The notes under the pieces are model-generated. The model worked only from the letters and a program-made list of their open reading frames with translations. It searched no databases and was not told where the DNA came from. A program made the translations under genes and the position numbers. Shown here piece after piece: positions 24,060 to 48,159 of a stretch of DNA of 64,000 nt. Origin of the DNA: a virus (taxonomy: Duplodnaviria > Caudoviricetes); IMG/VR virus record IMGVR_UViG_3300021400_000347, positions 68,917-132,916 of that record. One strand, 5' to 3'. Every line of letters begins with the position of its first letter. Within the stretch, counting starts at the first letter, position 1.

Positions 24060-24770
24060 CAGGCTTTTACTTTAACACATTAAAGTGCTAAAGTAGATCG
24101 ATTGTTAAACTTATAACAATACTCCGCCCATTGTTAAACTTCGGGCCGGTCGTTACCGTAGATCGATTGTTAAACTTTTAACAATCCTCCACTGTAGATC
24201 GATTGTTAAACTTTTAACAATCTAACTCGGGGCCCACTTTAGCGCGTTAAAGTGATAAAGTCCGTCACTTGTTAAACATCAGGCCAGTTAGTTATAACTA
24301 ACTTGATACTGTAGATCGATTGTTAAACTTTTAACAATCGGGCCGACCGGCCAGGATCGATTGTTAAACTTTTAACAATCTTCCGCGCAGGCGTTCCGGG
24401 CCAGTTAGTCATAACTAACTTGAACCTTAAAAAAGGTTCTCCTCCACCGTCTTTATTATAGCGGATAAAGTCAAGTTTGTCAAGGGGTTTTTGAAAATTT
24501 TTTTTAGTTAGTTATGACTAACTAAAACGGGCCCGAGATTGTTAAACTTTTAACAAACTTTAGCGCGCTAAAGTACAGGCCAGTTAGTTCAGACTAACTA
24601 ACTCGTGGAGATCGATTGTTAAACTTTTAACAATCTCCGGGCCGGTTAGTTATAACTAACTTGAAGGGGGGCTTTTACTTTAACGCGTTAAAGCGTTAAA
24701 TAATCGGTCGCGCTCTTGTCATCGGTGTTTAAGGGGGAGCAAGATTGTTAAACTTTTAACAATCCTCCAC
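24060..24770. repeat. Dense cluster of three palindromic operator-like motifs (TTGTTAA-N4-TTAACAA, ACTTTA-N6-TAAAG, GTTAG-N6-CTAAC)
   Basis: TTGTTAAACTTTTAACAA at 24167, 24203, 24320, 24361, 24539, 24616 and 24745; ACTTTA-N6-TAAAG sites at 24068, 24235, 24556 and 24676; five GTTAG-N6-CTAAC sites. Confidence 0.9.
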
Positions 24771-24843
24771 CCGTCGCAAAGCAAGGCAGGGTGCGGGTTT
24801 CACGGGCCGGCCAGAGCAAGGAAAAGAGCGCCTTTCGGCGCCC

Positions 24844-25035
24844 TTACTCCCAGTCCTCCCGCCACACCTTGCCGTCCTCGTGGCACCGGATGAACATCCC
24901 TTCCTCGTGGTAGCACTCGCTTTTGTCATGCATGCGGCAGTAGGTTTCCGCTTCTTCGAAGGTGTCGAAGGTCTCTTCGATGTCCTCATCGTAGCCGCCG
25001 TTGTAGTAGGAGATGACTTCGTAGAAATTCTTCAT
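24844..25035 (-). CDS. Small acidic early protein
   Basis: Own TTGACA/TATTAT promoter, GAAAGGAAG RBS, downstream hairpin. Confidence 0.7.
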   Translation of the reverse strand: MKNFYEVISYYNGGYDEDIEETFDTFEEAETYCRMHDKSECYHEEGMFIRCHEDGKVWREDWE

Positions 25036-25178
25036 TGTTCTTTCTTCCTTTCTTGTGGTGGGCTCTTGTCCCTTTCCACGGTCTTATAATAGCATACTTT
25101 TGCCGGTTTGTCAAGCACTTTTTTTATCTTAAGCAAACTTTTTTTTGCTTGTCATCCAAGAGAGGAAAGAGGACTTTT

Positions 25179-25418
25179 TCAGTCCTCTTCCTCCTCCGCC
25201 CACGCTTCTTCTTCGGTATACTCCGCAAGGACTTCATCCATATACAGGAGCGCAACGCGCGTCACGCAATCGCCCACGGCTTCCAGAGAGGACTCGTAGT
25301 CTTTCACCGCTTCGTCCCACTCTTCGGGGGTGTACCATTCAGTCTCCACCTCGCCGTCCGTATAGTCAGTTTCCACTATCACGGTCAGACCAGACATCAT
25401 GTTTTCGGGCTTCTTCAT
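25179..25418 (-). CDS. Small highly acidic protein
   Basis: Own promoter, GGAGG RBS; about one third Asp/Glu. Confidence 0.7.
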   Translation of the reverse strand: MKKPENMMSGLTVIVETDYTDGEVETEWYTPEEWDEAVKDYESSLEAVGDCVTRVALLYMDEVLAEYTEEEAWAEEEED

Positions 25419-25562
25419 TGTTTTGTTCCTCCACTCTTTTTTGTTTTGTGGCTTTCCCTTTCCACGGTCTTATAGTAGCACATTTCGGCCGGTTTGTCAA
25501 GTGTTTTTTTCATCCTCCACAAACTTTTTTTTAGTGGAGGGGAAGAGGGCTTTTCAGCCCTC

Positions 25563-25712
25563 TTAATCGTCTCGCCGCTCCACGCGGAGGAACTTTTCCC
25601 CAAACAGTTTAGCCATCCGCTCGCCGTCCGCCATAGCGGCCTCTTCCGTGGGGTATGCGGTGCAGACGAAGGCGTTGGTCAGGATGATGAAGTAGCGAAC
25701 CCTTTTAGTCAT
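25563..25712 (-). CDS. Small hypothetical protein
   Basis: Promoter and GGAGG RBS before ATG 25712. Confidence 0.6.
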   Translation of the reverse strand: MTKRVRYFIILTNAFVCTAYPTEEAAMADGERMAKLFGEKFLRVERRDD

Positions 25713-25829
25713 TGTTTTTTCCTCCTTCTTCTCTGTGGTGGCTTTCCCTTTCCACGGTCTTATAATAGCACAGATCAACCGGTTTGTCAAGTACTTTTTT
25801 CAAGATTGAACAACTTTTTTTATGCCATA

Positions 25830-26176
25830 TAACACAGCATACAGCACAGCACACAGAACACACACAGCACAGCAAACAGGTACACAGCACAGAGATACAC
25901 ACAGCACAGCACACAGAGCACACAACACAGCACGCACACAGCACACAGGTACACGCACAGCACACACACACAGAGCACAGCACACACACAGAGCACACAC
26001 AGAGCACAGCACAGAGATACACACACAGCACAGAGCACAGCACACAGGTACAGTATAGCACACAGGTACACAGCACACACAGCACACAGATACACACAGA
26101 GCACACACACAGCACACAGATACACAGCACAGCACACAGGTACAGTACACAGGTACACCACACAGCACAGCACAAC
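25830..26176. repeat. Low-complexity (CA)n-G repeat tract (CACAG/CACAGAG/CACAGGTA units)
   Basis: About 350 bp of irregular CACAG-based units, nearly devoid of T on the plus strand. Confidence 0.95.
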
Positions 26177-26285
26177 AATAGTACCATATATAAAAGGCAC
26201 CTTTTCCACCATCCTTATTATACAGGATAAAAGTCAAGTTGTCAATAGGTTTTTTAAAAATAATCAAAAAAAAGAGGATGGGCAT

Positions 26286-26633
26286 TTATTCGCCCATCCA
26301 CATCTGTACCACTTCCATACCGCCAAATCCCGCATAGCGCGCCTCTACAATCATATCGTCCTTTACGCTTGCGCTATAGTTATCAAACATAATCATTGAC
26401 ACGAAATCGCCCACGGTGTAATCTTCCACGCCTTCCATAATCCACACCATACCAGCGGCGTCCACCATAACCACGATATCCTCTTCCACGCTGATCTCGG
26501 TGATGATTGCCATATGGGAGTAAAGGTGATTATAGTCAAGAGTCACATCAGGGAGAAACACAGTAGCGGACGCGGTGGAGATGGTCAGGATGGCAATCAG
26601 GGCGAGGGTCAGGGCAATCAGCTTTTTCATCAT
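26286..26633 (-). CDS. Secreted/membrane protein, paralog family A (copy 1)
   Basis: Signal peptide MKKLIALTLALIAIL; shared VDAAG...EDxxxGD.VS..MFDN...DD motif. Confidence 0.75.
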   Translation of the reverse strand: MMKKLIALTLALIAILTISTASATVFLPDVTLDYNHLYSHMAIITEISVEEDIVVMVDAAGMVWIMEGVEDYTVGDFVSMIMFDNYSASVKDDMIVEARYAGFGGMEVVQMWMGE

Positions 26634-26722
26634 TGTTTCAAGTCCTTTCCGGTTTTAAGGGTTTTCCTTCCCTTCTTGACAAGTCAATTATAGCATATGG
26701 AAACCGGTTTGTCAATAGGTTT

Positions 26723-26986
26723 TTATCCACAAAATGAATCTGTGGATAACTTTTTTCTGTGGATAACTTTTGCGCTCCTCCACCCGTGAAAACATAGACG
26801 TAGTGCGGCTTTCCAGACGCGCGCAAACATAGGCACAGTGCGGCCGGGCCGGCCACCACAGCAAAATAATAGAGACCCTTAAAAAAAGGGTCTCCTCCAC
26901 CGTCCTTATTATAGCGCCTTTTTGTCAATCTGTCAAGGGGTATTTATCCACAAAATTAATCTGTGGATAACTTTTCCTGTGGATAA
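26723..26986. promoter_or_regulatory. Two triplets of perfect DnaA boxes
   Basis: TTATCCACA at 26723 and 26944; TGTGGATAA at 26741, 26758, 26962 and 26978. Confidence 0.85.
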
Positions 26987-27141
26987 CTTTTAGCGCAAAA
27001 GTTAGTTATAACTAACCATATTACTTTAACAGGCTAAAGTTTGTTAAACTTTTAACAATCTTGCGCGCGCAAAAGAAAAGGGCGCAAGCCCTTTTAGAAT
27101 GCGGTTTTCCCGCGCCGGCCTGAGCGAGGTGTGGCGCGGTT

Positions 27142-27333
27142 TTACCCGCGCCGCGCCACCACGACCGCCAGCACAATCAGCACCACCGCAAGCGCCGTGG
27201 AGATCCACAACGGAGCCAGCACCCAGACCCACGCCCAGTCGATGACGCCGCACAGTTTCAGGACGATGAAGGCAATGGTCAGGAGACCGGTAAAGCCGAT
27301 GCCGCCGCGGGTGTTGTTCTCGTTCTTCTTCAT
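27142..27333 (-). CDS. Small two-helix membrane protein
   Basis: GGIGFTGLLTIAFIVLKL.GVIDW.W.WVLAPLW, a pattern common in phage membrane proteins; own promoter. Confidence 0.75.
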   Translation of the reverse strand: MKKNENNTRGGIGFTGLLTIAFIVLKLCGVIDWAWVWVLAPLWISTALAVVLIVLAVVVARRG

Positions 27334-27829
27334 TGTGATGTTCCTCCTCTTCTTTTCCGGGGCTTCTCTCTCCCCGTGACTATATACTAGCATATCGGCC
27401 GGCTTTTGTCAATACCTTTTTTTCATTCAGGGACAACTTTTTTTCACCCTCCACCAGTTAGTTATGACTAACTTATATCCTCACTTCCCCCTCCTCCACC
27501 ACTATCATTATAGCAAATAGAAGTCAACTTGTCAAGAGGTTTTTGAAAAATCGTGTAAACCCTTATTTTAAGCCATTCAGGCCAGGTCGAGCCGGCCAGA
27601 GTAAACAAAAGAGAGCTTTTCAGCCCTCTTCCTCCGGGTGCTCCTCCAGCCACCGCCGCAGCGCTTCCTCTTCTTCCAGCCGATCCTCCATCAATTCCAC
27701 GTCCGTATAGTACATTCTCTCGTCCTCCTCTTCTGTAGGGCTTTCCTCCCCACGACTATATATTAGCATATCGGCCGGCTTTTGTCAACCCTTTTCCGCA
27801 ACTTTTTTAGAAAAAGAAAAGGGCTTTTT

Positions 27830-28075
27830 TCAGCCCTTTTCCTCCAGGTCACCCCACGGGGAGATTATGAACCATTCCATTTCACCCTCCGGATCGTCCC
27901 GCCGCTCTTCCTCCATCCGGATCCGCGCGTCCTCAATGGTTTCATCGGAACCCATGATCCACCAGTTATCGGCATCCTGTACACAGATAACCACATACCG
28001 CTCACAATTCATCAGGTCGTGCTCCATCCATCCATTCACTTTCAGGGTCTTGCGGCCGGTCAGCTTAATCTTCAT
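27830..28075 (-). CDS. Hypothetical early protein
   Basis: Own promoter, RBS and terminator. Confidence 0.7.
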   Translation of the reverse strand: MKIKLTGRKTLKVNGWMEHDLMNCERYVVICVQDADNWWIMGSDETIEDARIRMEEERRDDPEGEMEWFIISPWGDLEEKG

Positions 28076-28173
28076 TGTTCTTTCCTTCTTTCTTTTCTGT
28101 CAGGGCTCTTTCCCTCCCTGCAAGTATATAATAGCATAGTCGCCGGCTTTTGTCAAGTACTTTTTTCAAAAAG

Positions 28174-28218
28174 TTATCCACAGATTTTGCCTGTGGATAA
28201 CTTAAGGTTGTGGATAAC
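28174..28218. promoter_or_regulatory. DnaA box triplet
   Basis: TTATCCACA 28174; TGTGGATAA 28192 and 28210. Confidence 0.85.
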
Positions 28219-28397
28219 TTTGCGCGCAAAGTTAGTTATAACTAACCTATATATAGTTGCCCCTCCTCCACCGTCCTCATTATAGCATATAAAAGTCAAG
28301 TTGTCAATACCTTTTTTAAAAAACGTGGAAAAGCGCATTGCGCCTTGATCTGGCCGGCCGGCCTGAGCCAATAAAAAAGCGCCTTTCGGCGCTTTCC

Positions 28398-28700
28398 TCA
28401 GCAGTAGATGAGGCTCATATCCGCCCACTTAAGAACAGAAATCTGATTGTGGGCGCGTCCGATTTCAAGAGCGGCTTTTTTCGTAGCAACGCGGAAGGAG
28501 TGATCCACATAATACACACCATCGGAGAACCAGATCCCGCAATCGCCGTTCATATCCTCCACCGCTTTGATCGTCTCTTCCACCGTGCGGCACTCCACAC
28601 CGTGATCCGCAACCTGATAGCCGCTTTTGTAGGTAATGGGCTTGCCGTGCCGCAGGGTCAGACCGTCGTTATTGTGAAGGTTCGCAATCAGGTTCTTCAT
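28398..28700 (-). CDS. Hypothetical early protein
   Basis: Own promoter, RBS, terminator hairpin. Confidence 0.7.
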   Translation of the reverse strand: MKNLIANLHNNDGLTLRHGKPITYKSGYQVADHGVECRTVEETIKAVEDMNGDCGIWFSDGVYYVDHSFRVATKKAALEIGRAHNQISVLKWADMSLIYC

Positions 28701-28779
28701 TGTTTCCGTCCCCTTTCCTTTGGTACGTCTGTATTATAGCATACCAAAGCCGGCTTGTCAAGGGGTTTTTGAAAAAAAG

Positions 28780-28824
28780 TTATCCACAGATTTCTCCTGT
28801 GGATAACTTTTGCCTGTGGATAAC
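28780..28824. promoter_or_regulatory. DnaA box triplet
   Basis: TTATCCACA 28780; TGTGGATAA 28798 and 28816. Confidence 0.85.
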
Positions 28825-29367
28825 TTTGGAGTTAGTCAAGACTAACCTATGTTTTCACTCCCCTCCTCCACCATCCACATTATAGCATATAGGCAAGCGC
28901 TTGTCAAGAGGTTTTTGAAAAAAACTTGCGCGCGGAGTTAGTTATGACTAACCGGGGTATTTTCGGGCCGGCCAGAGCAAATAAAAACGCGGGTTTGCGA
29001 ACCCGCGTAGAGCAAGGGTTTTAGCCCTTTTTGTTGTTCAGGGGCTTGCGGCCAAGGGGCGCGCAATTGCGCCAGGTGTTGGAAACGGTGACGATCAGCA
29101 GGGCCTTGACGGTGTTGCGGTTGGAGTTGGTGATCTTCCACATTGTTCATTCTCCTCTCTTTTCCGGTGGGTTCCTCCCTCCCGGTGACTATATATTAGC
29201 ATATTCGAGCCGGTTTGTCAATAGGGAAAATCACTTTTTTTCAACTTTTTTTGCCGTGGTTAGTCAAGACTAACTTATGCCCTCGCTCCCCTCCTCCACC
29301 GTCCACATTATAGCATAGCCCAGCCGGTTTGTCAAGACCTTTTTCTAGTTATAAAAAAAGAACCTTT

Positions 29368-29805
29368 TTACAGGTTCTTCAGCACTTCCATAATCTGGCA
29401 AGGCTCATAAGCTTTTCCGTTTTTCCAAGCGTTGCGGTTGGGCGTCTCGTCATCAAACAGGATGGAATCCGCGCCGCCGCAAACCGTCCATTTATTTACC
29501 CCATAGGGCACGATATGGATGGAGTCAAAATGTACGCTTGCGAGGTGCTTTTTCAGCCATACCAGTTTAGCCATTGTCACGGCCTTGTCATAATCCGCGG
29601 TGCTGTACTTGCTAAGCCAGCTGATCACGGTGATCTTGTGGCCTTCCGCCTGCAGGCGGTTCAGCTTGCGCGCAAGGGTGGAAAGATTCACCAGCGGCTT
29701 TGCTACCTGATAGGGAATAGGGCTATAATTGTTAAGATAATCAAGCCAGTTTTCCACGCCGTACAGGTTAGCAAGGGTTCCGTCAAGGTCGAAGCAGATG
29801 TTCAT
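29368..29805 (-). CDS. HAD-family phosphatase (5'(3')-deoxyribonucleotidase-like), copy 1
   Basis: FDLDGT motif I, conserved Lys, ILFDD motif IV. Confidence 0.8.
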   Translation of the reverse strand: MNICFDLDGTLANLYGVENWLDYLNNYSPIPYQVAKPLVNLSTLARKLNRLQAEGHKITVISWLSKYSTADYDKAVTMAKLVWLKKHLASVHFDSIHIVPYGVNKWTVCGGADSILFDDETPNRNAWKNGKAYEPCQIMEVLKNL

Positions 29806-30036
29806 CGTGGGCCCTCCCTTCTTTACGGTTACATTATACACGATAGACCGGCTTTTGTCAAGGGGTTTTTAAAAAAAAATTAGGGGTTGACAACTTGACT
29901 TTTATATGGTATAATATAATGGGGGAGTGAGGACTATAGTTAGTTATGACTAACTCCGCGCGGGCCCGGCCTGGGCGCGCGGCCCTCCTCCACCGTCCTT
30001 ATTGTATCACACTTTTGTCAAGTTGTCAAGGGGTAT

Positions 30037-30103
30037 TTATCCACAAAGTTATCCACAGGCGTATGAAGTTATCCACAAGGGTTGTGGATAATTCTGTGGA
30101 TAA
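30037..30103. promoter_or_regulatory. Five DnaA boxes between divergent promoters
   Basis: TTATCCACA at 30037, 30049 and 30069; TGTGGATAA at 30083 and 30095. Confidence 0.85.
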
Positions 30104-30197
30104 CTTTTTCAAAAAACCTATTGACAAATCGCCGCCCATATGCTACTATATCATTGTCAGCCGGGGAGACCGGAGACAAGAGAGGAGATAGAAAACA

Positions 30198-30500
30198 ATG
30201 ATGAGCAAAGCCACCGCCAACTCCATCGCCACCGCGCGCGCCGCCTTCGGTACCCGGGAGTTCACCATCCACGAGTGGGACGCCCTCCATACGGGCTCTC
30301 GGCTGGAAACCGTTGTCTACCACGGGGGAGCTGAGCGCATTACCCGCACCACCCGCCAGTATTACACCGTGGCCGAGCTGGTGGAGCACCTCAACGACTG
30401 CGCTGGCGAGGACTGCTACGGCTGCGACTGGTACTACCAGCTGGACGCTGACGGTCGCGCCTATCAGGACTTCACCACCACCACCTACCGGATGACCTGA
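30198..30500 (+). CDS. Hypothetical protein (against the local strand trend)
   Basis: TTGACA/TACTAT promoter, GAGGAG RBS, GC3-rich codons, terminator. Confidence 0.7.
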   Translation: MMSKATANSIATARAAFGTREFTIHEWDALHTGSRLETVVYHGGAERITRTTRQYYTVAELVEHLNDCAGEDCYGCDWYYQLDADGRAYQDFTTTTYRMT

Positions 30501-30858
30501 GAGGGCGCCGCCCCTCTCAAAGCTGCCGCAAGGCAGCTTTTTTTCGCAGCTGGATAACGGGCCGGTTAGTCATAACTAACTCATCGGGCCGGCTGGCCTG
30601 AATAAAAGGCCTCCTCCACCATCCTTATTGTAGCATAAAAAGTCAAGCTTGTCAAGGAGGTTTTTAAAAAAACTTTTTCACAAAAAACCCTTGACAAAAG
30701 CGCCCTGATATGCTAATATAATAGTCGCAGGGAGGACCGCCCTCCCACCCTTAAGGGGCTCAGGCAGTTCGGCTGTCGAGCGGGGTAAAGCGGCGGGGAA
30801 GGTGCGCAAGCGCCTTTTTCTTTGCGCGGGCCGGCCGAGCTGGACTAAAAAAAGGCTG

Positions 30859-31002
30859 TCAGTCCTCCAGCTGACGGCCCTTGTGCTTGGGCGGCTTCCG
30901 CCGCTTGTCAGGGATAACGCGGGTGACAGGATTGACGTTGCCCCAGCTTCCCCGCATACCCTTCAGGATCTCCACCTGAGTCTTGACCTTGTTCTTCTTC
31001 AT
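30859..31002 (-). CDS. 47-aa basic peptide (copy 1), not in ORF track
   Basis: MKKNKVKTQVEILKGMRGSWGNVNPVTRVIPDKRRKPPKHKGRQLED; own promoter and RBS; paralog at 40791. Confidence 0.75.
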   Translation of the reverse strand: MKKNKVKTQVEILKGMRGSWGNVNPVTRVIPDKRRKPPKHKGRQLED

Positions 31003-31099
31003 TGCTTTCCCCTCCTGTTCTTTGGTACGGTCTTATAGTATCACATCCCGGCTAATTTGTCAAGTGGTTTTTCAAAAAAAAAAGCACTCTTGCGAGTGC

Positions 31100-31258
31100 T
31101 TACAGGTCGGGGTTTTCCATCATCACGCCGCCGATGGACTCGGCCACCTCGAGCGCCTTGTGGGCGTCATCCCAAGCGCCCCAGAAGTAGGTGTCACCGT
31201 CAACGCGGCGGCCAACCCAGTAACGGAGAGTGTAGGCGTAAGTAGGAACGTTCATCAT
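31100..31258 (-). CDS. Small protein, VDGD/WGA family (copy 1)
   Basis: NVP..AY...R.VDGD...WGA..D..KA...A..IGG shared with 38464-38649. Confidence 0.7.
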   Translation of the reverse strand: MMNVPTYAYTLRYWVGRRVDGDTYFWGAWDDAHKALEVAESIGGVMMENPDL

Positions 31259-32002
31259 GTGGTAACCCTTCCTTTCTTGTGGAGGTTTCCCCTCCTGACA
31301 ATGTAATAGTAGCACATCCCGGCCGATTTGTCAAGCCCTTTTTGAAAAAAACTTTTTCTAAAAAACCCCTTGACTTTTTCAATGGTTTGTAGTACTATAT
31401 AGTCACAGGGAGGAAGGTTCTCACCCCGAACGGCACCTCCCCTGAGCCTACCTCCACAAGGGGTCGAGTACAAGGGCTCTCAAAGATGAACAAAAAAAGG
31501 TTGTGGGGCGCGGAGTCTGGAAGGACTCCATTCTTATGTGGCAGGAGTTAGTTATGACTAACCGACGGGCCCGTCGATGAGCCAGCCCGACGATGGCTCT
31601 CCTCCACCATCCTTATTATAGCATAGCGAATGCGGTTTGTCAAGGGGTTTTTACAAAAAAAAAGTGGGGCGATGTTGCTCCCCTAGGCTTCGGGAAGTGG
31701 TCAATGGAGAACCTTGACCACAATCCCGTGGCAATCGGTGATGAGGTCAATGACCTCATCCCAGAGGTCATTCGCCTCAATCCACCGAACCGCCGCCCAG
31801 TGGTGCTGCCCCACCACGCGGTCGCTCAGGTACATTGCGCAATCTCCTTTCCGGAGGCGGGTCATCTCCCGCTCCCTTGGTACGGTCTTATTGTAGCACA
31901 CTTTTGCCGGCTTGTCAACCCTTTTTTCAAACTTTTTTCAACCGGCCTGAGCCAGCGCCTATGCGGGTTTTCACGACCGGCCCGGCCAAGCAGTGGGGCG
32001 GC

Positions 32003-32164
32003 TTAGCGCCGCCACACCACCGCGTGAATCGTGAACGCCTGAACCTCCCACGGTTCGCCGCTCGTAGCGGCGCGCACGCGCGCGGCCTCCACGGCCTCGG
32101 CCTCGGTCCAGTAGGTCACGCCGCCATAGAACCCGCCGCAATGAATCCGGAAGTAAGTCATCAT
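32003..32164 (-). CDS. Small hypothetical protein
   Basis: Promoter and GAGGAGG RBS. Confidence 0.6.
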   Translation of the reverse strand: MMTYFRIHCGGFYGGVTYWTEAEAVEAARVRAATSGEPWEVQAFTIHAVVWRR

Positions 32165-32349
32165 TTTCGTTTCCTCCTCTGTTTTCCGGGGTCTCTCCCG
32201 GTGTCTATATACTAGCACATTTTACCCGGCTTGTCAAGTACTTTTTTCAAACTTTTGTAAACCCAGGTGGCAAGCCCATCGGGCCGGCCCGCTGACACCC
32301 CAGTTAGTTATGACTAACTCTTTCTCAAAAGAAAAGGGCTTGTCAGCCC

Positions 32350-32553
32350 TTACAGCGCCCAGCGCGGAATATACACCAGCTCATAGACGCCATCATCGTC
32401 CACGCCCACGCCCACTGCGTGGTCATCCTGCCAAATAGTCATCTCCCGCCAAGTCACACCATCCTCTTCCCCAGGAGTGTCCTCCAGAATCTCCCAGCCG
32501 TTGGTCTCCACCATCCGCAGAATCTGCTCATAGGTCATGCCGCGCTCAATCAT
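32350..32553 (-). CDS. Small acidic protein
   Basis: Promoter, AGGAGG RBS, terminator. Confidence 0.65.
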   Translation of the reverse strand: MIERGMTYEQILRMVETNGWEILEDTPGEEDGVTWREMTIWQDDHAVGVGVDDDGVYELVYIPRWAL

Positions 32554-32667
32554 TTTTGTTTCCTCCTTTTTCTTACCGGGCTCCTCCCGGTGACTATATA
32601 TTATCATATCCGGGAGGAATTGTCAAGCGTTTTTTGAAATTTTTTCAATCTGGCGGGACGCCCTGTC

Positions 32668-39329: not shown

Positions 39330-39758
39330 ATGAAGATTGGGCTTATGGAATGGTTCTGTGACCAGATGACGGGCGAGTCTGTGGAACTCTACCGCAACAT
39401 TGAAGATGAGTGGTGTTGCGTTACCTATACGGGTCATTGTATGATCGGCTATGCCGAGAGCGATATCAACGGTGATCAGGATGACAACTTCCTGCGGGCG
39501 TGTTACATTTTTGACCCCTCTATGCGCAACATCGCGCCCATCACTTTGACTCTCGCCCACGAGGTCGGCCACTGGATGACCCGCCGCAAATACAATAAGT
39601 ACGCCGCTTTGCGCGAGTACAAGCGCGCCGTGGACGCCGCGACCCCCGAGGAATATCCCTTCATTGCGGCAGAAAAAGACGCCACTATGTGGGGCATCGA
39701 GTGGATTAATACCCATCTTGAAATCGTCAAGCGGTTTGAAACGATGTGGGCAGAATAA
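39330..39758 (+). CDS. HExxH zinc metallopeptidase-like protein
   Basis: TLAHEVGH plus downstream EKDA (ImmA/IrrE-like arrangement). Confidence 0.6.
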   Translation: MKIGLMEWFCDQMTGESVELYRNIEDEWCCVTYTGHCMIGYAESDINGDQDDNFLRACYIFDPSMRNIAPITLTLAHEVGHWMTRRKYNKYAALREYKRAVDAATPEEYPFIAAEKDATMWGIEWINTHLEIVKRFETMWAE

Positions 39759-39863
39759 TGCCCACGTCGGGCCGGCCCGAAAAAAGTTTCGCCAAACCTA
39801 TTGACAAGGCATTTCAAATGTGCTATAATCAAGGTGTTCCAAGAGAGAGGAGAGCGAAAGACA

Positions 39864-40367
39864 ATGACTGACTACATCACCCGCGCTAACCGTTTCCTCC
39901 ACGAGATTGCGCCCTACCTGATTGGCGCGTACACTGTCAACGAGGTTATCAACCGCGTTTCGCAGTACAACGAGGATCATCACCGCGCAGTCCAGATCGC
40001 GCACGGCGCGACCCGCATTGCTCTCATCACCTCCGACTATGTGATCAAGTTCAACTATGGCGATGACGTGAACGAGTACGGCGGTTGCGAGGAAGAAGAA
40101 GAGTTCTACGCCTACGCGTGCGAAGAGGGCTTCGGTGCCTACTTCGCGGCAACCACGGGTACCACGGTCAGCGGCCGCAAGTTCTGGATTATGCCGCGCG
40201 CAAGCGGTGTGGGCAGGGTGTGGCTGTATCGCAACGTTCCCGCCGTTGTGTATGAGTGGATTATTGACCACGTTTACGACCTCCACAACGGCAACCTCGG
40301 TATGATTGACGGTCACGTTGTCATCATTGACTACGCTTTGAACACTCTCAACGACCCGCAGGCGTAA
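39864..40367 (+). CDS. Minimal protein-kinase-like enzyme
   Basis: HGATRIAL (Gly-loop), VIKF (catalytic Lys), DLHNGN (catalytic loop), IIDY (DFG-equivalent). Confidence 0.7.
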   Translation: MTDYITRANRFLHEIAPYLIGAYTVNEVINRVSQYNEDHHRAVQIAHGATRIALITSDYVIKFNYGDDVNEYGGCEEEEEFYAYACEEGFGAYFAATTGTTVSGRKFWIMPRASGVGRVWLYRNVPAVVYEWIIDHVYDLHNGNLGMIDGHVVIIDYALNTLNDPQA

Positions 40368-40790
40368 GCGGGTCGGGCCGGCCGCGCGAAAATTAGTCTT
40401 GACTAACTGCCTGTTGTATGCTATAATGCGTATGAAAGGTGAGGTGAGCCGAATGAGCAAATACTTCGACAAGACCCACGTGGAGATTGTCTTTGAAGAG
40501 AGCACTTGCGAGGAGTGCGGCGGGACTTGGTTCTGGAGTCTCCAGCAAGTCAAGTGCTTTGTCAAAACTCCCAATGATGAAGACGCCGCCGTCATCAAAT
40601 GCCCCTACTGCTATAACGACTATCTGTTCATTGTATGAGGAGGAAATAACATGATCACTCTCTATCGGTACATTTTCGCGGACGGTTCTACCATCACTAT
40701 CTCCCACCCCTTGGAGTTCTCCGACCTCAAGATTGTCATTGATACCCACGGCGCGCTCGTCAAGTGCTACAAGAAGGCGGTGATTGTCGC

Positions 40791-40937
40791 ATGAAGATCA
40801 AGAAGAAGGTCAAGACCAACGTGGAGATCATCAAGGCACAGCGGAGCAATTGGGGTGCCATCTCTCCCGTGACTCGTGTCATTCCCGACAAGCGGCGCAA
40901 GGCACCGAAGCACAAGGCGCGGCAGTTCGAGGACTGA
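40791..40937 (+). CDS. 48-aa basic peptide (copy 2), not in ORF track
   Basis: MKIKKKVKTNVEIIKAQRSNWGAISPVTRVIPDKRRKAPKHKARQFED. Confidence 0.75.
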   Translation: MKIKKKVKTNVEIIKAQRSNWGAISPVTRVIPDKRRKAPKHKARQFED

Positions 40938-41220
40938 CGGGCCGGCCCGCGAGATTGACAAAAACTTGTCAATCTTTTTTTTGAAAAAACTACTTGACTT
41001 CTATCGGGTTTTGAGTATAATATCAAGTGTCGGGAGGACAGGATGACCTCCCGAAAGGGACAGGGAGAGGGACTCATCCCCCAAAATCTGCCAAAGGCCA
41101 CGGCGGCTCTCCCCAGTCTACGAAAAAAATCCTGTCAAGTACTTGACAGCAACCAAAATCCGTGCTATAATAAGACATCAGCTGAAGGAAAACAGCAAAA
41201 AACCAGAAAGGAAGTACCCC

Positions 41221-41574
41221 ATGAAGATTTCTACCCTGAACACCGTCATCTCCACCCTGAACTCCATCTCCTTCGACAACGCCGAGGTGATGGGCGAGCT
41301 GGTCAAGGAGCTGGAGCGCGCCGAGCAGGCTGACGCCCGCAAGGTTGCCCAGCGGAACGCCAACCTCAAGGGCTACGATGCCGTGAAGGCCATCGTGATG
41401 GAGAATCTGTCCACCGAGACTCCCGTGACCATCGCGGAGCTGTGGGACGCTATCTCCGAGAGCGTTCCCGAGGGCTTCACCAAGGGCAAGCTTCAGTACG
41501 CCGTGACCCGCCTGTGGGAGGATATGGTAGAGAAGCACGAGGGCAAGGTCAACTCCTACACCCTCAAGGCGTAA
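41221..41574 (+). CDS. Family C winged-helix protein (copy 2)
   Basis: PVTIAELWD...VPEGFTKGKLQYAVTRLW. Confidence 0.65.
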   Translation: MKISTLNTVISTLNSISFDNAEVMGELVKELERAEQADARKVAQRNANLKGYDAVKAIVMENLSTETPVTIAELWDAISESVPEGFTKGKLQYAVTRLWEDMVEKHEGKVNSYTLKA

Positions 41575-41617
41575 TCCCCCTCTCACGGGGAGGGCGCAAG
41601 CCCTCCCCACCCCCTAT

Positions 41618-41702
41618 GTGGCTGTGGTGGAATTGGAATACACGCACGCTTGAGGGGCGTGTCCCGCAAGGGATTCGGGTTCGACTCCCGATAGCCACAC
41701 CA
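41618..41702 (+). tRNA. tRNA-Leu(GAG)
   Basis: Cloverleaf with long variable arm, anticodon loop TTGAGGG, GGTTCGACTCC T-arm, encoded CCA. Confidence 0.9.
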
Positions 41703-41703
41703 T

Positions 41704-41790
41704 GCGGCTATGGTGAAATTGGAATACACGCAGGATTCAGGTTCCTGTCCTAGCAATAGGGTTCGGGTTCGACTCCCGATAGCCGCACCA
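41704..41790 (+). tRNA. tRNA-Leu(CAG)
   Basis: Anticodon loop TTCAGGT, long variable arm, CCA. Confidence 0.9.
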
Positions 41791-41935
41791 CGCGCCGAAG
41801 GGCGCCTTTTTTTATTTTCGGGCCGGCCCGCAGTTAGTTGCCGCTAACTGGAAAAAATTTCTATGAAAAAAACTCTTGACAAAAATCAAAATTTGAGTAT
41901 AATGTAGGTGTACCAAGAAGAAAGGGGTATGAAAA

Positions 41936-42280
41936 ATGAACCAGATGGAAAAGAAGCTTGCCGCTCGTACTCTCACGACCAACGCTCTCGCCAAGACTCT
42001 CGAGGAACTCGCCGCTGTTCAGTTTGGCGATGCGTCCTTCGCTGTCCTTCAGGAAATCGAGGGTCAGGAGGTGTGGACTGAAATCACCATCAAGGCGAAG
42101 GCGTTCACGCCCACCAAGGTCAGCCCCGCTTTCGACCCCTTCGAGGTGGCCGAGGAATGGAAGGCCGAGAAGGAAGCCAAGGCGCAGGAAAAGGCCGATA
42201 AGGCCAAGGCTAAGGCGGACAAGATTGCGCGGGATGCCGCCGCACGCGAAGCCAAGCGCAAGGCCAAGGATGGGGAGTAA
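41936..42280 (+). CDS. Hypothetical protein with Lys/Ala-rich coiled-coil tail
   Basis: Promoter and RBS; tail AKA.K.ARD resembles 48160-48495. Confidence 0.7.
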   Translation: MNQMEKKLAARTLTTNALAKTLEELAAVQFGDASFAVLQEIEGQEVWTEITIKAKAFTPTKVSPAFDPFEVAEEWKAEKEAKAQEKADKAKAKADKIARDAAAREAKRKAKDGE

Positions 42281-42581
42281 TCTCCCCACCCTGGCGGGCC
42301 GGGCGAAAAGTTAGGCTTGACTAACCACCTCTTGTGTGCTATAATAGCGGTGAAAGGTAAGGTGATTGGAATGATGGTATACATCAAGAATCAGGCGGGG
42401 CAACAGACTGTGCGGGACTTGCGCTGGTGGGACGCAATCTATATGCGGATCATTCTTTGGCATAGGTACCCGAAAGACAAGCGACCGATTGTTAGATTTC
42501 TTGTCTAAAACCCCTTGACAAAAACGGGGGTATCTGCTATAATAAAGGTACCCCAAGAGGGGAAGAAAGGAAAGACAGGAT

Positions 42582-43010
42582 ATGACGATTTGGTTCGATA
42601 TGGATGGTACGATTGCTGACCTCTACAGCGTGGATGGTTGGCTTACCGATTTGGTCAACGGTAGCACCCGCCCCTATGACGTGGCGCGGCCGATGATGAA
42701 CTTCTCCCGCCTTGCGCGGCTCCTCCACAAGGCACAGCGCAACGGCCACAAGATTGGCATCATCTCGTGGACTTCCAAGGGTGGCTCTGACCTCTACAAC
42801 GGCGAGGTTGCCCTTGCCAAGATGTTATGGCTTCATAAGCATCTCCCCTCCGTGGAATGGGACGAGATCAAGATCGTGGCCTACGGCACGAACAAGCGCA
42901 ACGCCACGGGCGGCGGTATTCTGTTCGATGACGAAGAGGACAACCGCGCCGCGTGGGGCAAGGGTGCGCACACTCCCGCCGAAATCGTCCCCGTGCTGAT
43001 GGGCATTTAA
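42582..43010 (+). CDS. HAD-family phosphatase, copy 2
   Basis: FDMDGT ... ILFDD; clearly homologous to 29368-29805. Confidence 0.8.
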   Translation: MTIWFDMDGTIADLYSVDGWLTDLVNGSTRPYDVARPMMNFSRLARLLHKAQRNGHKIGIISWTSKGGSDLYNGEVALAKMLWLHKHLPSVEWDEIKIVAYGTNKRNATGGGILFDDEEDNRAAWGKGAHTPAEIVPVLMGI

Positions 43011-43468
43011 TTGCCCATCAGCTTCGGGCCCGGCCCGCGAGTTAGTCCCCACTAACATTGTTAAAAAAATAACTTGCTGTCAAGGTATTGACTTTCGTCG
43101 AAATTTGAGTATAATAGATAGTGTCGAGAGGGAAAGCGAACGGGCGCGAGGTACCCGCCCCTGTCCCACTTGCGGACGCGCAAGCCCAAAATAACAAATA
43201 AAAAAAGTTTGGGAAACCTCTTGACAAACCCCACAAACTATGGTATAATCCATAGTGTCAAGAGGGGAAGCGAGGAAATGCCACTCGACTGGTACACCTT
43301 GAGATTCCCTACCACGGGTATCCAAGCGCTTGGTATAAGCACACGCAAGAGTCGCTTAGGTATGCGCGACAGAAAAGTTCCTCAATTTCCCTCTTGACAA
43401 ACCCCACAAAGTGTGGTACAATGAAGATGTTCCAAGAGGAACGGACGAAAAGAAAGGAAGGATGACCC

Positions 43469-43801
43469 ATGATGACTCTGACGACTCTGACCGCTCTCCG
43501 TACCCTGACGACCGACCCCGCTATGATTGCGGAACTGGATGCCGAGATTGCCCGCGTTGAGAAGGCGCAGGCTGTGAAGGCCGAGCACGCCGAGGCCAAG
43601 GCCGTGGCTTACGCGGAGGCCAAGGGCGTGGTTGTGGACGCTCTGCGGGATATCGGTGCTCCCGTGTCCGCGGCTGAACTCTACGAGGAGGTCGCTGACG
43701 CTCTGCCCGATGGTTTCACCAAGGGCAAGATGGTGTATGGTATGACCCGCCTGTGGGGCGATGTCATCGTCAAGGAGGGTAGCACCTACTCTCTGCGGTA
43801 A
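43469..43801 (+). CDS. Family C winged-helix protein (copy 3)
   Basis: PVSAAELYE...LPDGFTKGKMVYGMTRLW. Confidence 0.65.
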   Translation: MMTLTTLTALRTLTTDPAMIAELDAEIARVEKAQAVKAEHAEAKAVAYAEAKGVVVDALRDIGAPVSAAELYEEVADALPDGFTKGKMVYGMTRLWGDVIVKEGSTYSLR

Positions 43802-43990
43802 AGGGCGCTTCGGCGCCCTTTTCTTTTGCCCTTGTGTTAGTTATAACTAACGCGGGCCGGCCGCGAAATGTGCCCTTTATTGCCCCTTAAAAAACTTTCA
43901 AAAAACCCTTGACAAGCCCCCTCCCCCGTGATATAATCAGTTATGAAAGGTGAAGGACAACACCACAAACCAGAAAGGACATCCCGAAAA

Positions 43991-44704
43991 ATGCGTGATT
44001 TCTTCCTCGTCTTTGATAGCGAAACCGCCAACACCCCCAAGGAAAACGGTCAGCTTTCTACCCATTCCGCGCAGGTCTATGACCTCGGTTGGCAGATTGT
44101 GGACTGTGACGGTAATGTGTACGAATCTACCTCTCTCGTGAATCGCGATGTGTTCGTGGATATGCCCGAGATTATGGCGCAGGCGTACTTTGCGGAGAAA
44201 ATTCCCCAGTACTGGCAGGATATTTGGGAGGGCAAGCGGGAACTTGTCAACACGTGGGAAATGTGGCGGCGGTTCCGTGACGCTTGCGCCCGTTGGGACG
44301 TTCGGGCGGTGATTGCCCACAATGCGCGGTTTGATGTGCGCGTGCTTAATACGACTATGCGCTATCAGACCAAAAGCAAAAAGCGTTATTTTCTGCCCTA
44401 TGGTATGGAAGTGTGGGATACTATGAAGATGGCAAATGATACCATTTGTAAATTGTCCTCCTATCGGCAGTTTTGCGTAGAAAATGGCTACATGACCAAG
44501 CACCCCACCCCCCAGGTTCGCAAGACCGCCGAGATTATTTGGCGCTTTCTTACCCATAACAACGACTTCATCGAGAGCCACACGGGTTTGGAAGATGTTT
44601 CCATCGAAGCACAGATTTTCGCGGAGTGTGTGCGCCGCCACAAGCGTATGGAGCGCGCCGCGGAACTTGACCCCGATGACATCGAAGAGAGATGGGCACT
44701 TTGA
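43991..44704 (+). CDS. DEDDh 3'-5' exonuclease (DnaQ-like)
   Basis: FDSET (ExoI), AHNARFD (ExoII), HTGLED (ExoIII). Confidence 0.85.
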   Translation: MRDFFLVFDSETANTPKENGQLSTHSAQVYDLGWQIVDCDGNVYESTSLVNRDVFVDMPEIMAQAYFAEKIPQYWQDIWEGKRELVNTWEMWRRFRDACARWDVRAVIAHNARFDVRVLNTTMRYQTKSKKRYFLPYGMEVWDTMKMANDTICKLSSYRQFCVENGYMTKHPTPQVRKTAEIIWRFLTHNNDFIESHTGLEDVSIEAQIFAECVRRHKRMERAAELDPDDIEERWAL

Positions 44705-45217
44705 TGCCCATTTTTCGGCCGGCAAAAAAACTCTTGACAAACCTAAAAAGGTATGCTATAATCAAGATGTCAAATGAAGGAGGAATGAAAATGTTCAAGA
44801 TCGAGTATGACGTGTTCATCGGCGGCCACCTCTACACCTTCACCTACAACCACCTCTTCCTCACTCTGTATCTGGCGGCGCGTATGGCTCAGCACATCCG
44901 CAACACCAAGCACGCGGATGTCTACATCATCAACGCCATCACTGGCACGACCGTCGACTACTACTGGGCCGATTAACGGGCCGGCCCGCAAGTTAGTTAT
45001 GACTACATAACTAAAAAAAATTTTTCTAAACTACTTGACTTTTGTCGAAAATTCGGTATAATAGTAGGTGTCAGGGGGAGAGAGTAGGGTACCGACTCCC
45101 TCCATCCCCGACAAAAAAGTTTCAAAAAAGTCTTGACAAACCCAACAAACTGTGGTATACTCAAGACGTACCAAAGGGAAGGACACCCTACAAAAACCAG
45201 AAAGGAAGGATTGCCCT

Positions 45218-45547
45218 ATGACTATCACTACTCTCCAGACCCTCATCAACACCGTGAACGCCCCTGAGATCGTGGAGGAGCTGAAGGCCGAGCTGGCGAA
45301 GGCGCAGAAGGCCGCCGAGAAGAACGCCCAGAAGGCGACTGAGCGGAACGCTGTCTACGAGACTGCCTTCAACGTGGTGAAGGATACCCTCGCCACCGCG
45401 GGCGTGCCGCTGACCGCTTCCGAGATTTGGGAGGACGTTCAGGACAAGGTGCCCGATGGCTTCACCTTCGGTCAGCTTGTCTACGGTCTGTCCCATCTGT
45501 GGGCGGTTGACAAGGGTGATGGCAAGGTTCGCACCTACACCCTGTAA
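45218..45547 (+). CDS. Family C winged-helix protein (copy 4)
   Basis: PLTASEIWE...VPDGFTFGQLVYGLSHLW. Confidence 0.65.
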   Translation: MTITTLQTLINTVNAPEIVEELKAELAKAQKAAEKNAQKATERNAVYETAFNVVKDTLATAGVPLTASEIWEDVQDKVPDGFTFGQLVYGLSHLWAVDKGDGKVRTYTL

Positions 45548-45577
45548 GGGATAGGGCGCAAGCCCTTCCCCCTCCGT

Positions 45578-45661
45578 GGGCGGGTTCCCGAGTGGTCAAA
45601 GGGAACAGACTGTAAATCTGTCGCGATAGCTTCGGTGGTTCAAATCCACCCCCGCCCACCA
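45578..45661 (+). tRNA. tRNA-Tyr(GTA)
   Basis: Anticodon loop CTGTAAA, long variable arm, CCA. Confidence 0.9.
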
Positions 45662-45665
45662 CTTT

Positions 45666-45740
45666 GCCCCATTGGCGCAATGGTAGCGCAACTGACTCTT
45701 AATCAGTGGGTTGCGGGTTCGAGTCCCGTGTGGGGTACCA
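45666..45740 (+). tRNA. tRNA-Lys(CTT)
   Basis: Anticodon loop CTCTTAA, GGTTCGAGTCC, CCA. Confidence 0.9.
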
Positions 45741-46283
45741 ACGCCGCTTAATGCGGCTTTTCTTTTCCAAGCGGGTTAGGCACAGCTAACGGGCCGGCCG
45801 CAAATTACCTCTTGACAAAACATCACAAGTATGATACAATAGTCTCGAAAGGTGGGATACCTAATGAAGAAGATGGGTATTGGTTTGAGCACTGTCGCCA
45901 CGTTCGCGGGTATGGTTTGGGGAATCTTCTGGCACCCCCTTGTCATCCTGACTTTTGTCGGGCTGATCGGCGGTTGGGTGATCGCGAACTGGAACGAGGA
46001 GGAATAATAATGAAGTACACGCTGTTGACTATCTACGATAACATTACCACAAAGACTGAACGTACTGATGATTTCCGCGCAGCTCTGTCCGCCGCGGGTA
46101 TCTACCTCGCTGATCGCGATGTGATCGGTGTAAAGATTTGGGACAACCAGACAGGCAAAACCATTCTGGACTACTGGCGCGACTGACGGCCGGCCCGAAA
46201 AAGATTTTCAAAAAGTACTTGACAACCCCACATAGGTATGCTATAATGGGCTTGCCCGATGAGGGAAGAAAGGAAGTAATAAG

Positions 46284-46565
46284 ATGAGAGATGCGGAGCG
46301 CGGTACCTACAATGGCGACACCACCTTCTGCCCCGTGAACGCCTACGGCGATTGCCCCTATTGCGACCAGTGCGGCGTATGCCACATTGATGACCCGATG
46401 GAGGATTGCGAGGACTGGCGCGCGTTCTGGGATAGTTGGTTTGACTGGCAGAACGCCGACACCGTTGACCCCGATGCGCCTACGGATTTCGCGGAAGATG
46501 AAATCCGTTGGGCGGGCGATGTGTATGGCTATGAAGATACGATGGAGGATAACAGCGATGAGTAA
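46284..46565 (+). CDS. Acidic Cys-rich protein
   Basis: CP...CPYC...C..C; promoter and RBS. Confidence 0.6.
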   Translation: MRDAERGTYNGDTTFCPVNAYGDCPYCDQCGVCHIDDPMEDCEDWRAFWDSWFDWQNADTVDPDAPTDFAEDEIRWAGDVYGYEDTMEDNSDE

Positions 46566-47420
46566 GAAAACCGCATTGCGACAACAAGTTGAAGCTATGG
46601 CTGAAAACTTCAACGAAACTTTCCTTGATGCCTATCAATGCCAAGACTGGGGCGTCACCGCAAAAAAGTTCGCCCGCTTGTGTATTGAGGAATTGACTAA
46701 ACAGCTTACTCAGCTTGCTCACGAACTGGATGATGAGAGGTATGATGATAATGACTAAAAAAACCGCGCTTATTGTCGCTTGTAACATAATGAGTGATAC
46801 ACTGTACGATATGGAGAGCGAGTTCGGCGTGAAAGAAGCGCGGAGCGACTCCTACTACAAACAGGTTCAGGAGGCCATCGAGATTCTGGGGCGTATGCTT
46901 GACGAAGAGGTGTAAGCCTCTTCGGGCCGGCCAGCAAATTAGTCTTGACTAACCCTAATCCATATGCTATAATAAGGTCGAAAAGAGGACAAGGACAGTC
47001 CTAAAAACCAGAGAGGATGCTAATATGTACATTCTGTTCGACACCGAAGGAAACTCCCATTTCATTGAAGATGAACGCGAACTGGACCGTGAACTGCTGA
47101 AGCTGTGTTTCGCGTGGACTAATGACGACCGCTATGAAGATGATATGGACTATAAGGCGCTGTTCAATTCGTGCCGTGAGAACCACGACTTTGGGGACAT
47201 CGCGCAGGTGTTCAAGTGTGATAAGTCCGAGATTGGCTTCTATCTCACTGAGGTAGGCGAAACTATCACGCTGACGCGCATCTATTAAGGGTAGGAAACT
47301 ACCCTTCGCGCCGGCCCCGCAAAAAACTTTCAAAAACCCCTTGACAAGCAACCCACAATGCGCTATAATAAGCGTGTCAAGAAGAGGAAGGCAACCTCCC
47401 AAACCAGAAAGGCAACCGCT

Positions 47421-47840
47421 ATGAAGATTACCCCCGCTATGCTCCACGACCGCAACTCCAAGTACTTCACTACCTACATCTACTACTTCACCTCTGACAA
47501 GCCCCTGAATCAGCTTCGCTATCGGCTGGAGCTCCTGTCCCATATCGGTATGATGCTTGACAAGGGCGACACGTTCACGGCCGAAAGCTGTGGCCTTAAT
47601 GGCCAGAGCATCTCCATTATGGCGCGTGATAATGACGACAGTGCTTTCTTCAACAAGCTCCCCTTCACCCGCGTGGAGCAGGAGAAGGTCACCATCCATA
47701 TCAATATGCTGACCTACTTCGGCAGGGAAGAAATTGAGAAGGAAGTCCCCCGCTGGATTTACCGTATGGACTGGACGAGCGAAGAGGTCGCGGAGTTCGT
47801 GCGGGCGGTCTATGAGGATCTCGGCATTGTGCGGCGGTAA
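47421..47840 (+). CDS. Hypothetical protein
   Basis: Promoter and RBS; GC3-rich codons. Confidence 0.65.
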   Translation: MKITPAMLHDRNSKYFTTYIYYFTSDKPLNQLRYRLELLSHIGMMLDKGDTFTAESCGLNGQSISIMARDNDDSAFFNKLPFTRVEQEKVTIHINMLTYFGREEIEKEVPRWIYRMDWTSEEVAEFVRAVYEDLGIVRR

Positions 47841-48159
47841 GCCGCACTCTGGCCGGCCCGCAAAAGTTAGGCTTGACTAACTCAATATTATATGCTATAA
47901 TAGTCTCGCAAAGGAGGGAAAAATATGACTACTCTCATCAATGCTCTCATCCGTTTCCTGTGTCGGCATTGCCACGTTATGTATCAGGACACCTTCTATC
48001 AGGTGTGCGAGACTTTTAGTGGTAAGTATGACAAATATCACGAAAAGCCTTTCTACTACGCAAAGGCGTGGGCTATCTGGAAAAATACCCATTGACAAAT
48101 TGCCCACCATATGCTATAATAACATCGTTCCCAGAGAGGACAGAAAGGAAGGATTCAAG

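Follow-up and report, generated by a model that had tools for sequence, protein, structure and literature searches.

The DNA examined here, which we refer to as the window, is a stretch of 64,000 nucleotides corresponding to bases 68,917-132,916 of the linear 132,916-bp IMG/VR phage record IMGVR_UViG_3300021400_000347 (completeness estimate 76%). We focus on its early region at 24-49.5 kb, where the non-coding spacers carry many copies of motifs resembling operators of bacterial host regulators; positions refer to the window unless a relative is named. The phage contig (133 kb) reads TAG as glutamine. Under translation table 11 the left 23.5 kb of the window is nearly devoid of long open reading frames (ORFs), and translating TAG as glutamine opens a late operon on the minus strand (1-23572), including a frame of 4,825 codons with 120 TAG codons that begins before the window and ends at 9243. 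The early region has a G+C content of ∼50% compared to 34-45% in the other parts. It encodes ∼50 small genes, none with a TAG codon, that are read in the standard code and mostly have their own sigma-70-type promoter; the leftward early genes occupy 24,844-35,143 and the rightward ones 35,857-48,688. There are 76 promoter-like sites with at most two mismatches to TTGACA-N16-18-TATAAT in this region and 32 of the contig's 37 perfect promoters fall within it. Passages of a preprint on TAG-recoded phages of the gut and rumen (10.1101/2021.08.26.457843) describe TAG-rich late genes, early genes that stay compatible with the standard code and predicted Firmicutes hosts. With its recoded late operon and standard-code early genes the window thus matches these phages as described there; the preprint's passages on the searched terms do not mention early-region operator arrays. 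A megablast of 24-36 kb against GenBank phages returned no match.

Four motifs dominate the spacers, and for each of them we computed the expected count as the mean over shuffled sequence. The DnaA box TTATCCACA occurs in 20 exact copies in the window (expected 0.63, maximum 3), the Rex-type site TTGTTAA-N4-TTAACAA in 8 perfect and 2 one-mismatch copies (expected 0.02), the DtxR-type site GTTAG-N6-CTAAC in 34 copies (expected 0.08) and the HisR-type site CTTTA-N6-TAAAG in 10 copies (expected 0.13). All copies are located between 24,070 and 47,881 and there are none elsewhere in the 132,916-bp contig. An earlier note on this DNA had proposed that the motifs form a decoy array for host regulators. 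Its counts were reproduced (20, 8, 34 and 10, far above the shuffled expectation) and the two dense clusters that it described are found at 24060-24770 and 35365-35790.

The left cluster (24060-24770) separates the last of the leftward early genes from the late operon and contains 7 perfect and 1 one-mismatch Rex-type, 5 DtxR-type and 4 HisR-type sites. A perfect consensus promoter without a gene (24455-24483, minus strand) reads from within the cluster through the sites at 24070-24440 towards the sigma-70-type promoter of the TAG-recoded late operon (23592-23621, minus strand). The central cluster (35365-35790) is placed where early transcription diverges. Besides 5 DtxR-type and 5 HisR-type sites it comprises repeats of the GAGGTACCTCAC type, one CtsR-like repeat at 35672-35690, direct repeats resembling WalR/PhoP boxes at 35691-35785 and, at 35730-35790, an AT-rich stretch. 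A gene-less near-consensus promoter (35295-35323, plus strand) transcribes through it. The first rightward early gene, which encodes a member of a 148-aa family, has a perfect consensus promoter at 35794-35822 (plus strand). Both clusters are thus framed by a gene-less consensus promoter on the upstream side and a major operon on the downstream side, the late operon for the left cluster and the rightward early operon for the central one. A simple scan for intrinsic terminators gave no convincing candidate in the transcribed direction between the gene-less promoter and the operon in either cluster. The description of the clusters as having no gene to regulate needs one correction, in that both have a promoter context.

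The three palindromes share one geometry of a 5-bp arm, six bases and a second 5-bp arm, which is typical of dimeric helix-turn-helix proteins. Both in the window and in ∼100 further copies from related phages the arms are constant, and the six central bases and the linkers vary. Mismatches within an arm, such as AGTGAG...CTAACT in the relative L123, come without a compensating change on the opposite arm. Fixed arms, variable centres and uncompensated mismatches indicate sequence-specific protein sites on DNA and not stem-loops. The reading of the palindromes as RNA hairpins was ruled out on the same grounds, and an Rfam scan of the window gave nothing beyond four tRNAs. We also rejected the idea that the GTTAG palindrome is a multi-frame stop cassette, as one frame per strand stays open.

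To assign the GTTAG palindrome we searched the genomes of 185,579 species for pairs of AGTTAG-N6-CTAACT sites at most 30 bp apart. Such pairs were found in at least 120 bacterial contigs; the matches listed are mostly from gut or rumen Bacillota and include Lachnospiraceae, Oscillospiraceae, Erysipelotrichaceae and Acholeplasmatales. Typically one site of the pair lies between TTGACA and TATAAT and the other at the transcription start. The first ORFs on either side of the pair at 91 loci gave 118 proteins, which we scanned against Pfam: 52 were FeoA, 19 were DtxR-family repressors with Fe_dep_repress together with Fe_dep_repr_C, 8 were FeoB, 9 DUF3793 and 4 heavy-metal-associated. Since the pairs occupy the promoters of feoA, feoB and repressor genes, the GTTAG palindrome is the predicted operator of a DtxR-family repressor that controls ferrous-iron uptake through the feoAB regulon of gut Bacillota. 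The classical DtxR/IdeR box, the 19-bp TTAGGTTAGCCTAACCTAA with arms 1 bp apart, was not matched; the half-site GTTAG is common to both, but the phage arms are 6 bp apart. GTTAG-N6-CTAAC is thus predicted to be the operator type of another branch of the DtxR family and not the corynebacterial box. A T7-like promoter reading of GTTAGTTAYGACTAACTAACTAT was dropped, as this motif is found at bacterial feoA promoters; a search of the contig for RNA_pol (PF00940) found no match and carries no weight because the control was likewise silent. The phage's commonest variant, AGTTAGT-N4-ACTAACT, resembles the feoA operators of contigs from Erysipelotrichaceae, Anaeroplasmataceae and Acholeplasmatales (L129-L208 compared), whereas most Clostridia contigs have AGTTAGC-N4-GCTAACT. 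We regard this variant as a weak hint at the host clade.

For the CTTTA palindrome the Firmicutes HisR consensus cacTTTAnnnnnnTAAAgtg, a 20-bp palindrome validated in vitro with HisR of Ruminococcus gnavus (PMC9413887), provides the reference. In Clostridia the HisXYZ transporter belongs to the HisR regulon, and HisR frequently controls its own gene (PMC9413887). All 10 phage sites have the HisR core and five of them also have gtg on the 3' side; the closest to the full 20-mer, at 35575, differs in one flank base. In five of the 17 Clostridia genomes with a match to CTTTARC-NN-GYTAAAG the match has the form TTGA-CTTTAGCnnGCTAAAG-TG-n-TAAnAT, so that the operator lies between −35 and −10, and precedes genes of the Trp_repressor family or of family-3 solute-binding proteins (SBP_bac_3) of amino-acid ABC transporters. 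Matches inside promoters are the ones that can be assigned to a predicted HisR regulon and only these are informative. For Rex, TTGTTAANNNNTTAACAA is given in the literature as the motif typical of Clostridiaceae (PMC9600882), and the Rex-type site of the phage is identical to this published clostridial consensus. The eight Rex units of the phage are identical over ∼30 bp.

The remaining motifs were compared with known consensus sequences. TTATCCACA is the textbook high-affinity DnaA box. The CtsR consensus is the direct repeat (A/G)GTCAAA-NAN-(A/G)GTCAAA: the CtsR-like repeat GGTCAAA-GTC-AGTCAAA has one mismatch in the spacer, and the window contains no exact match, while exact matches occur in the relatives L123 (3), L015 (2) and L120 (1). 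For the WalR/PhoP-type box, which consists of hexamer direct repeats 11 bp apart (TGTWAH-N5-TGTWAH), there are 3 exact matches in the central cluster, one of them directly upstream of the main rightward promoter. The identities that the earlier note had proposed have become firmer for the most part, since the DtxR and HisR types passed genomic and literature tests and the Rex and DnaA types, like the WalR type, agree by sequence; the CtsR consensus was missed by one base. Its expectation that the motifs lie upstream of regulon genes in host-type genomes held for the DtxR-type sites (feoAB) and the HisR-type sites (five Clostridia genomes), but Rex gave a single match in an uninformative context. 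Judged by these comparisons, the motifs are probably operators of host regulators.

The phage itself does not appear to encode the cognate proteins, in line with the first inspection. When the contig and four relatives, including three complete genomes, were searched with profiles in six frames, no HisR/TrpR, Rex N-domain, CtsR or OmpR-type output domain was detected, and a DnaA profile found no homologue in the contig. For the DtxR family the contig and relatives gave only sub-threshold matches, namely generic small winged-helix proteins of the relatives that have no metal-binding domain (E ∼2e-4), and we rejected a phage-encoded DtxR on this basis. As the contig is incomplete the absence there would be weak evidence by itself; the complete relatives strengthen it. 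One could still argue that unrecognised DNA-binding proteins of the phage occupy the sites and that the likeness to host operators is mimicry or coincidence. The winged-helix proteins of the complete relatives would suit this explanation, as would the lack of family matches among the early proteins: for 20 of the ∼50 encoded, a Pfam scan returned only weak NT5C-like matches. A further candidate is the 148-aa family beside the central cluster, three paralogues of 147-148 aa that open the rightward early operon (35857-36303, 36834-37277 and 37921-38364, plus strand). The family is present in all ten relatives, with the invariant motifs NxGExFER and KDSVPF..GD...G.E.QIK.DGAE, and the AlphaFold model of the 148-aa protein is confident (predicted local distance difference test, pLDDT, 91.7). 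Foldseek returned no match at E ≤0.001 for this model, and the best VIA-align Z of 2.6 does not amount to a match with a fold in PDB. However, at least four unrelated proteins would be needed, each having arrived by convergence at precisely the consensus of another host regulator. Moreover, homologues of the six families were detected neither in the contig nor in the three complete relatives (DnaA: contig only), and the mix of site families varies among relatives. We therefore consider phage-encoded binding proteins highly improbable.

The operator-rich early DNA is not peculiar to this contig. The 18-mer AGTTAGTYMWRACTAACT occurs in more than 116 IMG/VR contigs, many of 90-180 kb, and proteins with 43-62% identity to the first rightward early protein are encoded at ten loci. 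All ten share the cassette layout, with the GTTAG palindrome beside a GCCGGC core at the cassette junctions. The fragment IMGVR_UViG_3300037400_003374 (G002) has 57 DtxR-type sites in its early regions: ∼30 tandem palindromes with a 20-bp period stand upstream of the relative of the first rightward early gene, adjoined by four DnaA boxes with a 12-bp period and three exact CtsR boxes, and another 17 copies form an array where the early and late regions meet. In the complete 169-kb genome G001 we counted 22 DtxR-type, 12 HisR-type and 31 WalR-type sites, all of them in the early region. The exact Rex-type 22-mer gave just two single matches in IMG/VR, which suggests that the Rex array is private to the lineage of the present phage; the DnaA and Rex expansions are confined to this phage. 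Thus host operators in early non-coding DNA recur as a theme across more than 100 viral contigs and appear to be a family trait, whereas the mix of regulators is lineage-specific. The gene content of the early region also differs between relatives. A separate palindrome, AGTTAA-N7-TTAACT, was seen in 6-9 copies only in the early region of G001 (128-169 kb; L276-L278).

Outside the two clusters the sites are dispersed between the early cassettes. The DnaA boxes form six clusters, five of which are trios, and the boxes are invariant with divergent spacers. Trios are located at 26723-26766 (one forward and two reverse boxes) and 26944-26986, each 7 bp upstream of a minus-strand −35 element, at 28174-28217 and 28780-28823, whose distances to the minus-strand −35 element downstream are 17 and 18 bp and which have a DtxR-type site next to them (at 28231 and 28831, respectively), and at 35222-35265, where the trio adjoins the central cluster. 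The sixth group consists of five boxes between divergent promoters (30037-30103). A small cluster at 27001-27058 holds one DtxR-type, one HisR-type and one Rex-type site. In the left arm 16 dispersed DtxR-type sites (27457-34763) mark the cassette junctions. Many are found at roughly +25 to +45 relative to a gene-less consensus promoter, and three pairs of them flank GGCCGGCC (33044/33076, 33979/34013 and 34706/34748). Nine further sites in the right arm (36624-47881) stand at junctions composed of a terminator, GGCCGGCC, the site and the next promoter. The element GGCCGGCC occurs 33 times (24053-49417), exclusively in the early region and usually within a few bases of a DtxR-type site at cassette junctions; relatives have GCCGGC variants (TGCCGGCA, GCGCCGGC) at the same position. 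Besides the one in the left cluster, gene-less perfect or near-perfect promoters were found at 27507-27535, 28279-28307, 28879-28907 and 29307-29335 on the minus strand and at 29887-29915, 32972-33000, 33904-33932, 34633-34661 and 35295-35323 on the plus strand. Their predicted transcripts open with purine-rich leaders resembling Shine-Dalgarno sequences (GGUGGAGGAGG... or GCACCGGAGGGAGAGACAGGGGAGAGUGA...), which often precede a GTG and a mini-frame of 3-9 codons that closes in or at the DtxR-type palindrome.

The number of sites speaks for titration. In the five bacterial genomes with a feoA operator that we searched, the perfect DtxR-type sites of 18 bp number 2-6 per genome and the perfect Rex sites 0-1. 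A single copy of the phage genome has 19 of the former, or 34 if the 16-bp core is counted, and 8 of the latter. Counted over the phages the range is 34-57 DtxR-type sites per genome. Their placement is uneven: all 8 Rex and all 10 HisR sites (18 of 18) are distant from any promoter core, which suits a sink. From these observations we infer binding, titration and a benefit to the phage. We hold a combined model plausible, although short of probable: host regulators would occupy the phage sites, some of which are wired in cis while the copy number is low, and at high copy number the sites would inevitably become a sink that the phage probably exploits. Probable operators for the DtxR-family iron repressor, HisR, Rex and DnaA are present in large numbers, together with CtsR- and WalR/PhoP-like boxes, and as the phage encodes none of these regulators the host proteins should occupy the sites after injection. 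At a single genome copy the DnaA trios, the DtxR-type sites at junctions and the clusters below gene-less promoters would tie early and late transcription to the state of the host. Once the phage replicates, its sites would exceed the host operators by orders of magnitude and act as a sink that draws the regulators off the chromosome; if many high-affinity sites are bound and replicated, depletion follows by mass action. The predicted outcome is derepression of genes for iron uptake, histidine uptake and fermentation as well as a depletion of DnaA. It is possible but doubtful that this family of large gut and rumen phages takes over host regulons by DNA alone, drawing stress or cell-wall regulators off the chromosome along with the iron repressor, HisR, Rex and DnaA; depletion would at the same time lift the roadblocks below gene-less consensus promoters, so that copy number would time read-through into the late operon.

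Several observations weigh against the combined model. For 14 of the 20 DnaA boxes there is a −35 element no more than 40 bp downstream, with the trios beginning 5-18 bp from it, and the WalR-type boxes of G001 mostly precede −35 elements by ∼10 bp, their register being almost constant; both placements look like regulation in cis. The closest relative, L119, has the same motif order in its central cluster. Roughly every gene cassette has a DtxR-type site next to GCCGGC, so that these sites may organise or insulate the cassettes. Because they are identical over such a length, the eight Rex units may be a recent duplication and not a selected dosage. Furthermore, the host-side searches gave little for two of the motifs: CTTTARC-NN-GYTAAAG was found in 17 of 401 Clostridia genomes compared to ∼19 for the control, i.e. 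without excess, and five genomes of the candidate host clade hold one perfect Rex site, located upstream of a class-V aminotransferase gene.

A rival is an explanation in cis alone, with the sites as a sensor, timer or insulator. Bound regulators would be roadblocks or upstream modulators that gate read-through from gene-less promoters into the late operon and the rightward early operon, insulate cassettes and tie early promoters to the status of DnaA or WalR, and depletion would carry no physiological weight. The position of both clusters between a gene-less promoter and a major operon fits it well. Among the DtxR-type sites, 13 of 34 are found no more than 60 bp below a −10 element, mostly following gene-less consensus promoters, and 2 enclose a −35 element (42310 and 47866), which also fits; 6 others are within 40 bp above a −35 and 13 are farther away. 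There are also precedents, as DtxR controls the corynephage tox promoter and Fur controls phage stx1. As in these cases, the phage bears operators for a metal-dependent repressor that is supplied by the host and not by the phage; but tox and stx1 have single operators over one promoter and one gene, whereas here we find 34-57 sites and several regulator families, partly in tandem, and just the 2 of 34 DtxR-type sites in the window overlap a promoter core. Moreover, one to four operators would suffice for sensing and neither 30 in tandem nor 57 per genome would be needed, the promoters already have a perfect consensus and would require no activator, the Rex and HisR sites are remote from promoters, and some depletion by mass action would be expected once the DNA replicates. 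We consider an exclusive role in cis rather unlikely. The boxes just upstream of −35, the junction sites and the conserved motif order do argue for roles in cis of at least some sites, as roadblocks, upstream modulators or insulators, and against a pure decoy.

The surroundings of the central cluster also bring to mind a replication origin that uses host DnaA, or a partition site, at this cluster and perhaps at the left one, with the palindromes as iterons or a centromere. DnaA boxes adjoin the cluster (in G002 there are the four boxes in series), it contains the AT-rich stretch, and the cumulative GC skew has its minimum near 34-36 kb. For a partition site one can point to a 17-copy array with a ∼48-bp period in L027 and to the likeness with centromere arrays of the sopC type. 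However, the skew has its minimum where the genes change orientation, most DnaA trios are scattered at promoters and not gathered, and the palindromes were identified as host repressor operators; we know of no origin or centromere that uses these. A search for ParB_N found no match, and the centromere reading was rejected on that account. F sopC, the dispersed sites of N15 and the omega heptads of pSM19035 are similar to the present arrays in that short palindromes or repeats, some in promoters, serve one dimeric protein, but that protein is encoded by the element, whereas neither a ParB-type nor another cognate protein was found here. Taken together, an origin or partition site is an improbable explanation.

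A last possibility is that the repeats are mainly recombination substrates that shuffle gene cassettes and that the operator likeness is secondary. The known counterpart are the promoter-early stem-loop (PeSL) cassettes of T4-type phages, in which a repeated intergenic unit of a strong early promoter and a palindrome flanks small early genes in a plastic region. In the phages studied here a junction module of terminator, GCCGGC, GTTAG palindrome and promoter surrounds nearly every small early gene in all relatives, the gene-less promoter-leader units resemble emptied cassettes and the early gene content is variable. But the PeSL palindromes are RNA or DNA stem-loops without an assigned protein, whereas those of the window match host operators and conserve their arms without compensating changes. 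Shuffling would leave unexplained the exact matches to four consensus sequences, the tandem arrays with a 20-bp period and the conservation of the arms alone around variable centres, so that we give it very little credence.

Two known systems of titration are related. The DnaA sink datA of E. coli is alike in its clustered high-affinity DnaA boxes, which act on the pool of free regulator and scale with copy number, but it is chromosomal, concerns one regulator and serves the cell cycle, whereas the present sites are phage-borne, number in the tens for several regulators and have a predicted effect. Engineered decoy or sponge arrays likewise place tandem consensus operators on multicopy DNA, where they titrate the repressor and derepress its regulon, but these are man-made. 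Phages redirect their hosts with proteins and small RNAs, and single operators of host repressors on phage genes are textbook knowledge. In the literature searched we found no natural phage operator array acting as a decoy, and dozens of consensus operators for four to six host regulators within one region are not described there. If the sites bind as predicted, they would be a natural example of regulator titration by viral DNA, would open a new route to predicting the host and its physiology from the phage sequence and would supply ready-made parts for decoy engineering in Clostridia. The conservative reading, with ∼50 early promoters wired to the iron, histidine, redox and replication status of the host, would also be new for large phages of the lytic type.

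Other features of the region were noted in passing. Upstream of the late promoter there are two CCAAATTCCACCAACTTTTT repeats (23640-23720), and the same repeats occur in the relative L027 at 9060-9120. They are unlike the host-type operators and are probably the site of a late regulator encoded by the phage. The repeats at 35520-35572 in the central cluster are of the GCCGAGGTACCTCAC type with the 10-bp palindrome GAGGTACCTC, and are conserved in the central cluster of L119 (3785-3822). Genes for tRNA-Leu (GAG and CAG), tRNA-Tyr (GTA) and tRNA-Lys (CTT) are located among the rightward early cassettes at 41618-41790 and 45578-45740 (plus strand). Between two early cassettes, ∼340 bp of a low-complexity repeat of the CACAG/CACAC type (25830-26170) are preceded by a minus-strand promoter-like site. 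At 30691-30830 and 31365-31560 (plus strand) promoter-like sites are followed by 110-190 nt of structured sequence free of ORFs and without an Rfam match; these units, the first of which ends in a terminator-like hairpin, may be small RNAs.

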